Shown here: positions 63,374-64,000 of the stretch, piece after piece
Position numbering within the stretch: position 1 is the first letter of the stretch
Layout of the letters: the number at the start of each line of letters is the position of its first letter
Assembly: GCF_030013205.1 (NCBI RefSeq)
Contig: NZ_CP122648.1
Direction: 5' to 3' (one strand)
From: Escherichia coli
GTDB taxonomy: Bacteria > Pseudomonadota > Gammaproteobacteria > Enterobacterales > Enterobacteriaceae
Length of the DNA: 64,000 nucleotides
Program-made: the position numbers and the translations under genes
The notes under the pieces: model-generated
Told to the model about the DNA's origin: nothing
Seen by the model: the letters and a program-made list of their open reading frames with translations, nothing else
Database searches by the model: none

Positions 63374-64000
63374 GGTAATGACTCCAACTTACTGATAGTG
63401 TTTTATGTTCAGATAATGCCCGATGACTTTGTCATGCAGCTCCACCGATTTTGAGAACGACAGCGACTTCCGTCCCAGCCGTGCCAGGTGCTGCCTCAGA
63501 TTCAGGTTATGCCGCTCAATTCGCTGCGTATATCGCTTGCTGATTACGTGCAGCTTTCCCTTCAGGCGGGATTCATACAGCGGCCAGCCATCCGTCCTCC
63601 ATATCCTGTCATACGCGTAAAACAACCAGCGCCGACGTAACCCCACTGTTCGTCCATTTCCGCGCAAACAATGACGTCACTGCCCGGTTGTATGCATGAG
63701 TTTACCGACTGCGGCCTGAGTTTTTTAAGTGTCGTAAAATCGTGTTGAGGCCAACGCCTATAATGCGTGCACTGGCGCGACATCCGACGCCATTCATGGC
63801 CATATCAATAATTTTCTGGTGTGTACCGGGCTGAGAGGCGGTGTAAGTGAACTATAGCTGCCATGTTTTACGGCAGTGAGAGCAGAGATAGCGCTGATGT
63901 CCGGCAGTACTTTTACCGTTACGCACCACGCCTTCAGTAGCTGAGCAGGAGGGACAACTGATGGAGATGGAAGCCACGGGAGCACCTCAAAAACACCATC
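63374..64000 (-). mobile_element. IS1 copy, defective, running off the window end
   Basis: IS1 right inverted repeat GGTAATGACTCCAACTTACTGAT at 63374; insA region with premature TAG (KTWQL*); insB with internal deletion of about 100 bp; left inverted repeat cut by window edge. Confidence 0.8.
63389..63667 (-). pseudogene. insB: IS1 InsB fragment (internal deletion)
   Basis: ...[11 protein letters not shown] then jump to [65 protein letters not shown]. Confidence 0.7.

Follow-up and report, generated by a model that had tools for sequence, protein, structure and literature searches.

The right end of the window (the whole 64,000-nt stretch of Escherichia coli DNA analysed here) holds a copy of IS1 beside a 143-codon open reading frame (ORF), and raises the questions of whether this copy is a relic or an element still capable of movement, and of what it interrupted on arrival. 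Within the window lies the right-hand 627 bp, on the minus strand, of a 659-bp IS1 whose left inverted repeat (IRL) and final 32 bp fall outside (they would occupy 64001–64032); no IS1 end other than the right inverted repeat (IRR) at 63374 was found within the window. The total length was obtained from the chromosome of the swine E. coli K_EC180 (NZ_CP062203.1), which shows one mismatch to the last 6,627 bp of the window and in which IS1 extends 32 bp more to an intact IRL. Both ends, IRL as read in K_EC180 and IRR, match those of intact IS1X4-type copies at every base and show the imperfect terminal inverted repeat of ~23 bp (GGTRATG...CCAACTTACTGAT) of the IS1 family. The length is not the canonical 768 bp, 659 bp being 768 minus 109, and RefSeq (NCBI PGAP) labels the copy "IS1 family transposase; frameshifted; internal stop".

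A 9-bp direct repeat, GGCAATGTA, flanks the element perfectly on both sides, its right copy lying outside the window at 6660–6668 of the K_EC180 stretch L001, and the empty-site allele of MSI001 contains these 9 bp a single time. IS1 target duplications are 8–9 bp long (PMC12428005); the duplication is of the size made by IS1 and records a real transposition event. Coordinates of the features are collected in the table below.

Features of the IS1 copy and of the adjoining gene (window positions).
Feature	Position	Strand	Basis or remark
Defective IS1	63374..64000	-	alignment to intact copies; RefSeq pseudogene label
IRR, GGTAATGACTCCAACTTACTGAT	63374..63396	-	same as IRR of intact IS1X4-type copies
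Target-site duplication, left copy, 9 bp, GGCAATGTA	63365..63373	.	right copy just beyond IRL
Truncated insA, 41 codons, zinc ribbon only	63852..63977	-	ends ...CRKTWQL, then TAG at 63852-63854
A6C programmed -1 frameshift motif AAAAAAC, retained	63720..63726	-	sequence
Largest surviving insB-frame ORF, 92 aa	63389..63667	-	DDE_Tnp_IS1 positions 61-131 of 131 only
16-bp deletion junction, IS1 nt 401-416 (GCGCTAAATCACGCCA)	63632..63633	-	alignment
93-bp deletion junction, IS1 nt 453-545	63596..63597	-	alignment
143-codon ORF, 3' remnant of ~187-codon YagK/YfjJ (inovirus Gp2-like) gene	62928..63359	-	Pfam PF11726

Lesions were read from an alignment of the fossil to intact IS1 copies of 768 bp, namely IS1A of K-12, the IS1X4-type copies of FEX669, EF7-18-51 and ET791, and, besides these, TC24 and two CP52E copies. 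The premature TAG that the earlier note had placed in insA after ...KTWQL is indeed there, at codon 42, having arisen from CAG by C179T (IS1 nt 179). The stop site reads CAACTGCAG in IS1A of K-12, CAGCTACAG in the intact IS1X4-type copies and CAGCTATAG in the fossil, so that the change of CTGCAG to CTATAG described earlier holds relative to IS1A, but the nearest isoform has CTACAG and the TAG needs only one C-to-T change. Pfam Zn_ribbon_InsA (PF03811) matches residues 1–36 of the remaining 41-residue ORF (E 9.6e-22).

A loss of about 100 bp from insB had also been noticed; 109 bp are absent, though as two deletions of 16 and 93 bp instead of one. The 16-bp deletion is edged by the 5-bp direct repeat GCGCT (a second GCGCT follows GCGCTAAATCACGCCA in the IS1X4-type parent) and shifts the insB frame, while the 93-bp deletion is in frame and has at its edges the pentamer GACGG, which lies within an imperfect repeat (10/13). 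In terms of the 232-aa InsAB', whose intact form has the Pfam domains Zn_ribbon_InsA (residues 1–36), HTH_Tnp_IS1 (43–86) and DDE_Tnp_IS1 (102–232), the residues lost are 116–121 with the smaller deletion and 133–164 with the larger. Placed on the 131-position Pfam DDE_Tnp_IS1 profile, the deletions leave the fossil without about half of it, and going by the usual layout of DDE transposases the lost stretch would lie between the first and second catalytic aspartates. An active IS1 requires a whole InsAB' of 232 aa in which zinc ribbon, HTH and DDE_Tnp_IS1 are all present, and this copy does not encode one. The A6C motif, where a -1 frameshift connects the overlapping insA and insB' frames of IS1 elements, keeps the register that it has in IS1A and IS1X4; the insA and insB' frames are themselves broken. 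Four substitutions, at nt 179, 274, 337 and 448, are private to the fossil, all of them C-to-T or G-to-A transitions. The earlier count of two inactivating lesions was therefore right as to inactivity but too low: at least three lesions, the TAG and two separate deletions, are predicted to disable the copy. By descent it is a member of the IS1 family, yet, judged from its sequence, a pseudogene.

Comparison with the isoforms region by region showed that nt 1–452 of the fossil have five differences from IS1X4 and 45 from IS1A, whereas nt 546–768 have ten from IS1X4 and one (nt 750) from IS1A; the switch from IS1X4-like to IS1A-like sequence therefore falls within or beside the 93-bp deletion. 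On these counts the copy reads as a mosaic, IS1X4-like on its 5' side and IS1A-like on its 3' side. With the IS1X4-type elements (for example those on E. coli FEX669 plasmids, annotated in RefSeq as 'IS1-like element IS1X4 family transposase') it has in common IRL, IRR, the insA start and the A6C motif; it differs from them in the TAG at insA codon 42, in the absence of nt 401–416 and 453–545, and in following IS1A over nt 546–768. IS1A of E. coli K-12 (NC_000913.3 19796–20563) is alike in organisation but is 768 bp long with insA and insB intact. No intact X4/IS1A hybrid that could be the parent was found in 5,426 complete E. coli genomes. The alignment to intact isoforms proposed in the earlier note bore out its reading: none of the intact IS1 copies agrees with it along its whole length, and the best (~97% identity) aligns in three BLAST pieces, covering 736 bp for the 627-bp query. 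At the 93-bp deletion junction, nt 448 is T, as in the downstream repeat, and nt 452 is G, as in the upstream repeat. A misaligned exchange between IS1X4-like and IS1A-like sequences may have created hybrid and deletion together in a single event; one crossover would nonetheless fail to explain the T and G together, and a further mutation, or patchy repair of heteroduplex DNA, would have to be supposed.

The ATG of the 143-codon ORF lies 15 nt from the first base of IRR (63374), with 14 nt in between, just as the earlier note had given its length and distance, but the ORF is not of unknown kind. It matches PF11726 (YagK_YfjJ_C) with 41 bits against a gathering cut-off of 25.8, its residues 8–112 corresponding to profile positions 27–135 of 170, and RefSeq names its 143-aa product a YagK/YfjJ domain-containing protein; an NCBIfam scan of this product and a paralogue gave no match. 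In strains with the empty site, the gene starts 44 codons upstream (MYTESNIKL...) and reads through the insertion point. IS1 therefore sits at codons 41–43 of a gene of ~187 codons, the ORF starts at an internal Met, and the first ~44 codons lie on the other side of IS1, beyond the window. Compared with the ~187 codons open in relatives, the gene here is broken twice, 44 codons being cut off by IS1 and a 1-bp deletion standing six bases upstream of the target. This deletion is common to the window lineage and MSI001, the only empty-site allele matching the flanks exactly, and the gene was probably frameshifted already when IS1 arrived. All five empty-site alleles inspected carry an inactivating lesion or truncation, such as a TAG at codon 170 in OkiPb01695 and MLI104K2 and a TGG-to-TAG change at about codon 88 in AR_0085 and LHM10-1; lesions that differ by strain (nonsense, frameshift, truncation by other sequence) suggest repeated independent decay.

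The gene hit by IS1 is one of three adjacent YagK/YfjJ paralogues, two of them pseudogenes as well in K_EC180, and the run of three has a transposase fragment on one side and, on the other, a gene for a YfjI family protein. The paralogues extend beyond the window end (L001 6816–8471; L005 5912–8087). In its PF11726 match and in its island adjoining a tRNA gene, the locus resembles the YagK/YfjJ (inovirus Gp2-like) genes of CP4-type islands and prophages; it differs from them in being IS1-split and frameshifted, with different nonsense mutations in other alleles. This AT-rich cluster appears to be a recurrent IS1 target, hit independently in another lineage. No promoter-like site linking IS1 to the 143-aa ORF was found in 62800–64000, where terminator-like matches were at chance level.

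The locus is chromosomal and belongs to an island that begins at tRNA-Ser(GGA) (37415–37502), adjoining ghrA, and contains CbtA/CbeA, an antirestriction gene, type I restriction-modification, Hhe, a group II intron, IS30 and IS3-family fragments. The CbtA/CbeA toxin-antitoxin pair (37999–38833) is followed by the antirestriction gene and then by hsdM/S/R (41736–47774), all of which, together with an ISKpn26 copy, lie within 37415–48902. Further along, a 1,915-aa ORF (51646–57393, plus strand), annotated in K_EC180 as the DUF4011 domain-containing anti-phage protein Hhe, stands just upstream of a nest of mobile-element debris (57600–62300), in which we observed a group II intron reverse transcriptase/maturase ORF (58153–59676, minus strand), an intact IS30 transposase ORF (60824–61975, plus strand) inside IS3-family fragments, and further transposase fragments.

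To see the site as it was before the insertion, we removed IS1 and one repeat copy and searched E. coli genomes with the resulting 600 bp. A place covering at least 80% of this reconstruction occurs in 812 genomes, a figure in which the 17 filled copies are counted, along with at least one site split by another IS1 (CP52E; two pieces joined), and in more than 790 the site is uninterrupted and in one piece (match 600–601 bp). The empty site of MSI001 equals the reconstruction exactly around the target, 1-bp deletion included. The filled site is 100% identical in 17 swine strains. The perfect duplication and the many uninterrupted sites agree with the earlier description of a fossil IS1 left by a past insertion; "older", however, can be kept only in a relative sense, the insertion being limited to these 17 strains with identical copies. 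CP52E was considered as carrying an intact progenitor at the same site and rejected, since its full-length IS1A-like copies are separate ones elsewhere in the YagK/YfjJ cluster, with 42 differences from the fossil. They stand at L004 1750–2447 and 3012–3709, and an IS1A-like copy is also seen in the cluster of LHM10-1 (L014 1135–1401).

We put the probability that IS1 moved into the YagK/YfjJ gene and that the copy is dead through the TAG and the two deletions at about 0.9. On this reading, IS1 would have transposed into the 5' part (codons 41–43) of the YagK/YfjJ-family gene, within a decaying island integrated at tRNA-Ser(GGA), in a strain ancestral to a lineage of swine-associated E. coli, generating the 9-bp target duplication. 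With the C-to-T change to TAG at insA codon 42, translation from the insA start can yield a zinc-ribbon peptide of 41 residues but not the InsA-B' fusion transposase; loss of 16 bp between GCGCT repeats puts insB out of frame, and loss of 93 bp between GACGG repeats takes away InsAB' residues 133–164, which belong to the DDE catalytic domain. Both deletions have the appearance of slipped-strand or short-homology events; in the larger one, which lies at the isoform switch, a second IS1 copy may have taken part through misaligned recombination or gene conversion. We infer that decay took place in situ after insertion and that the copy is no longer able to move by itself. The insertion probably cost the cell nothing, because the gene is already frameshifted in MSI001, the sole exactly matching empty allele.

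The order of events could also be reversed, the element having been already defective on arrival, as a non-autonomous mini-IS1 moved in trans by the transposase of another IS1. DNA carrying IRL and IRR at its ends is indeed mobilised in trans by IS1 transposase (PMC12903888), both ends of this copy are the same as those of intact IS1X4-type elements, the 9-bp duplication is perfect, and the K_EC180 chromosome has 21 IS1-matching places from which transposase might be supplied. A 101-bp probe across both deletion junctions was searched in 5,426 E. coli genomes and 72,556 plasmids; it is contiguous in just those 17 genomes, one place in each, and in none of the 72,556 plasmid records. The exact variant is thus confined to one locus in 17 related, complete swine E. 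coli chromosomes, with neither a donor copy nor a second insertion in the genomes and plasmids searched, and therefore has not, in the sampled data, spread as a mobile miniature element. We accordingly regard arrival in defective form as unlikely. An apparently widespread class of IS1 with the 93-bp deletion only was examined and rejected: the three records inspected proved, by local BLAST as well, to be full-length 768-bp IS1X4. The false class had arisen from records matching query positions 11–101 within 105 bp, because BLAST had carried an alignment with gaps (90%) across the imperfect repeat.

That the stop and deletions are sequencing or assembly errors in an intact IS1 has a negligible probability, even though the K_EC180 record does bear signs of small-indel error, with seven gaps in 49.9 kb relative to the window and mdoC (26126–27283, plus strand), an intact 385-codon ORF in the window, 'frameshifted' there. 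These gaps and mdoC point to assembly indel errors in K_EC180, not to biology. At the IS1 itself, the window and 17 independent complete assemblies of swine E. coli, from several laboratories, agree at every base over 627 bp, and losses of 16 and 93 bp edged by direct repeats are unlike typical homopolymer errors. No more credence is due to a functional short isoform of the family: IS1 isoforms are diverse and mosaic, and the ends and frameshift motif are conserved here, but an in-frame TAG at insA codon 42, a frameshifted insB, a DDE_Tnp_IS1 profile reduced by about half and the presence of just one copy in each genome, at one locus, all argue against it. The dead copy following insertion into the YagK/YfjJ gene remains our preferred reading.

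At long odds, the relic might even now influence other IS1 copies or be transposed by them, and the coincidence of deletion and isoform switch could record a single misaligned recombination. If so, with both ends and the insA start kept, the copy would be open to mobilisation in trans like a miniature transposon, and its 41-residue InsA zinc-ribbon peptide could hinder binding of InsA or InsAB' at other IS1 ends.

A dead IS1 copy is in itself ordinary, RefSeq already lists this one as a pseudogene, and E. coli islands commonly contain decayed IS elements; the significance is small. The 143-aa "YagK/YfjJ domain-containing protein" gene call of RefSeq is better taken as a gene fragment. The repeat-bounded deletions, with an isoform switch at one of them, make a tidy example of IS decay and recombination, and the filled site, a 659-bp IS1 with its GGCAATGTA duplication, provides a clean marker of a swine ETEC and O139:H1-type lineage.
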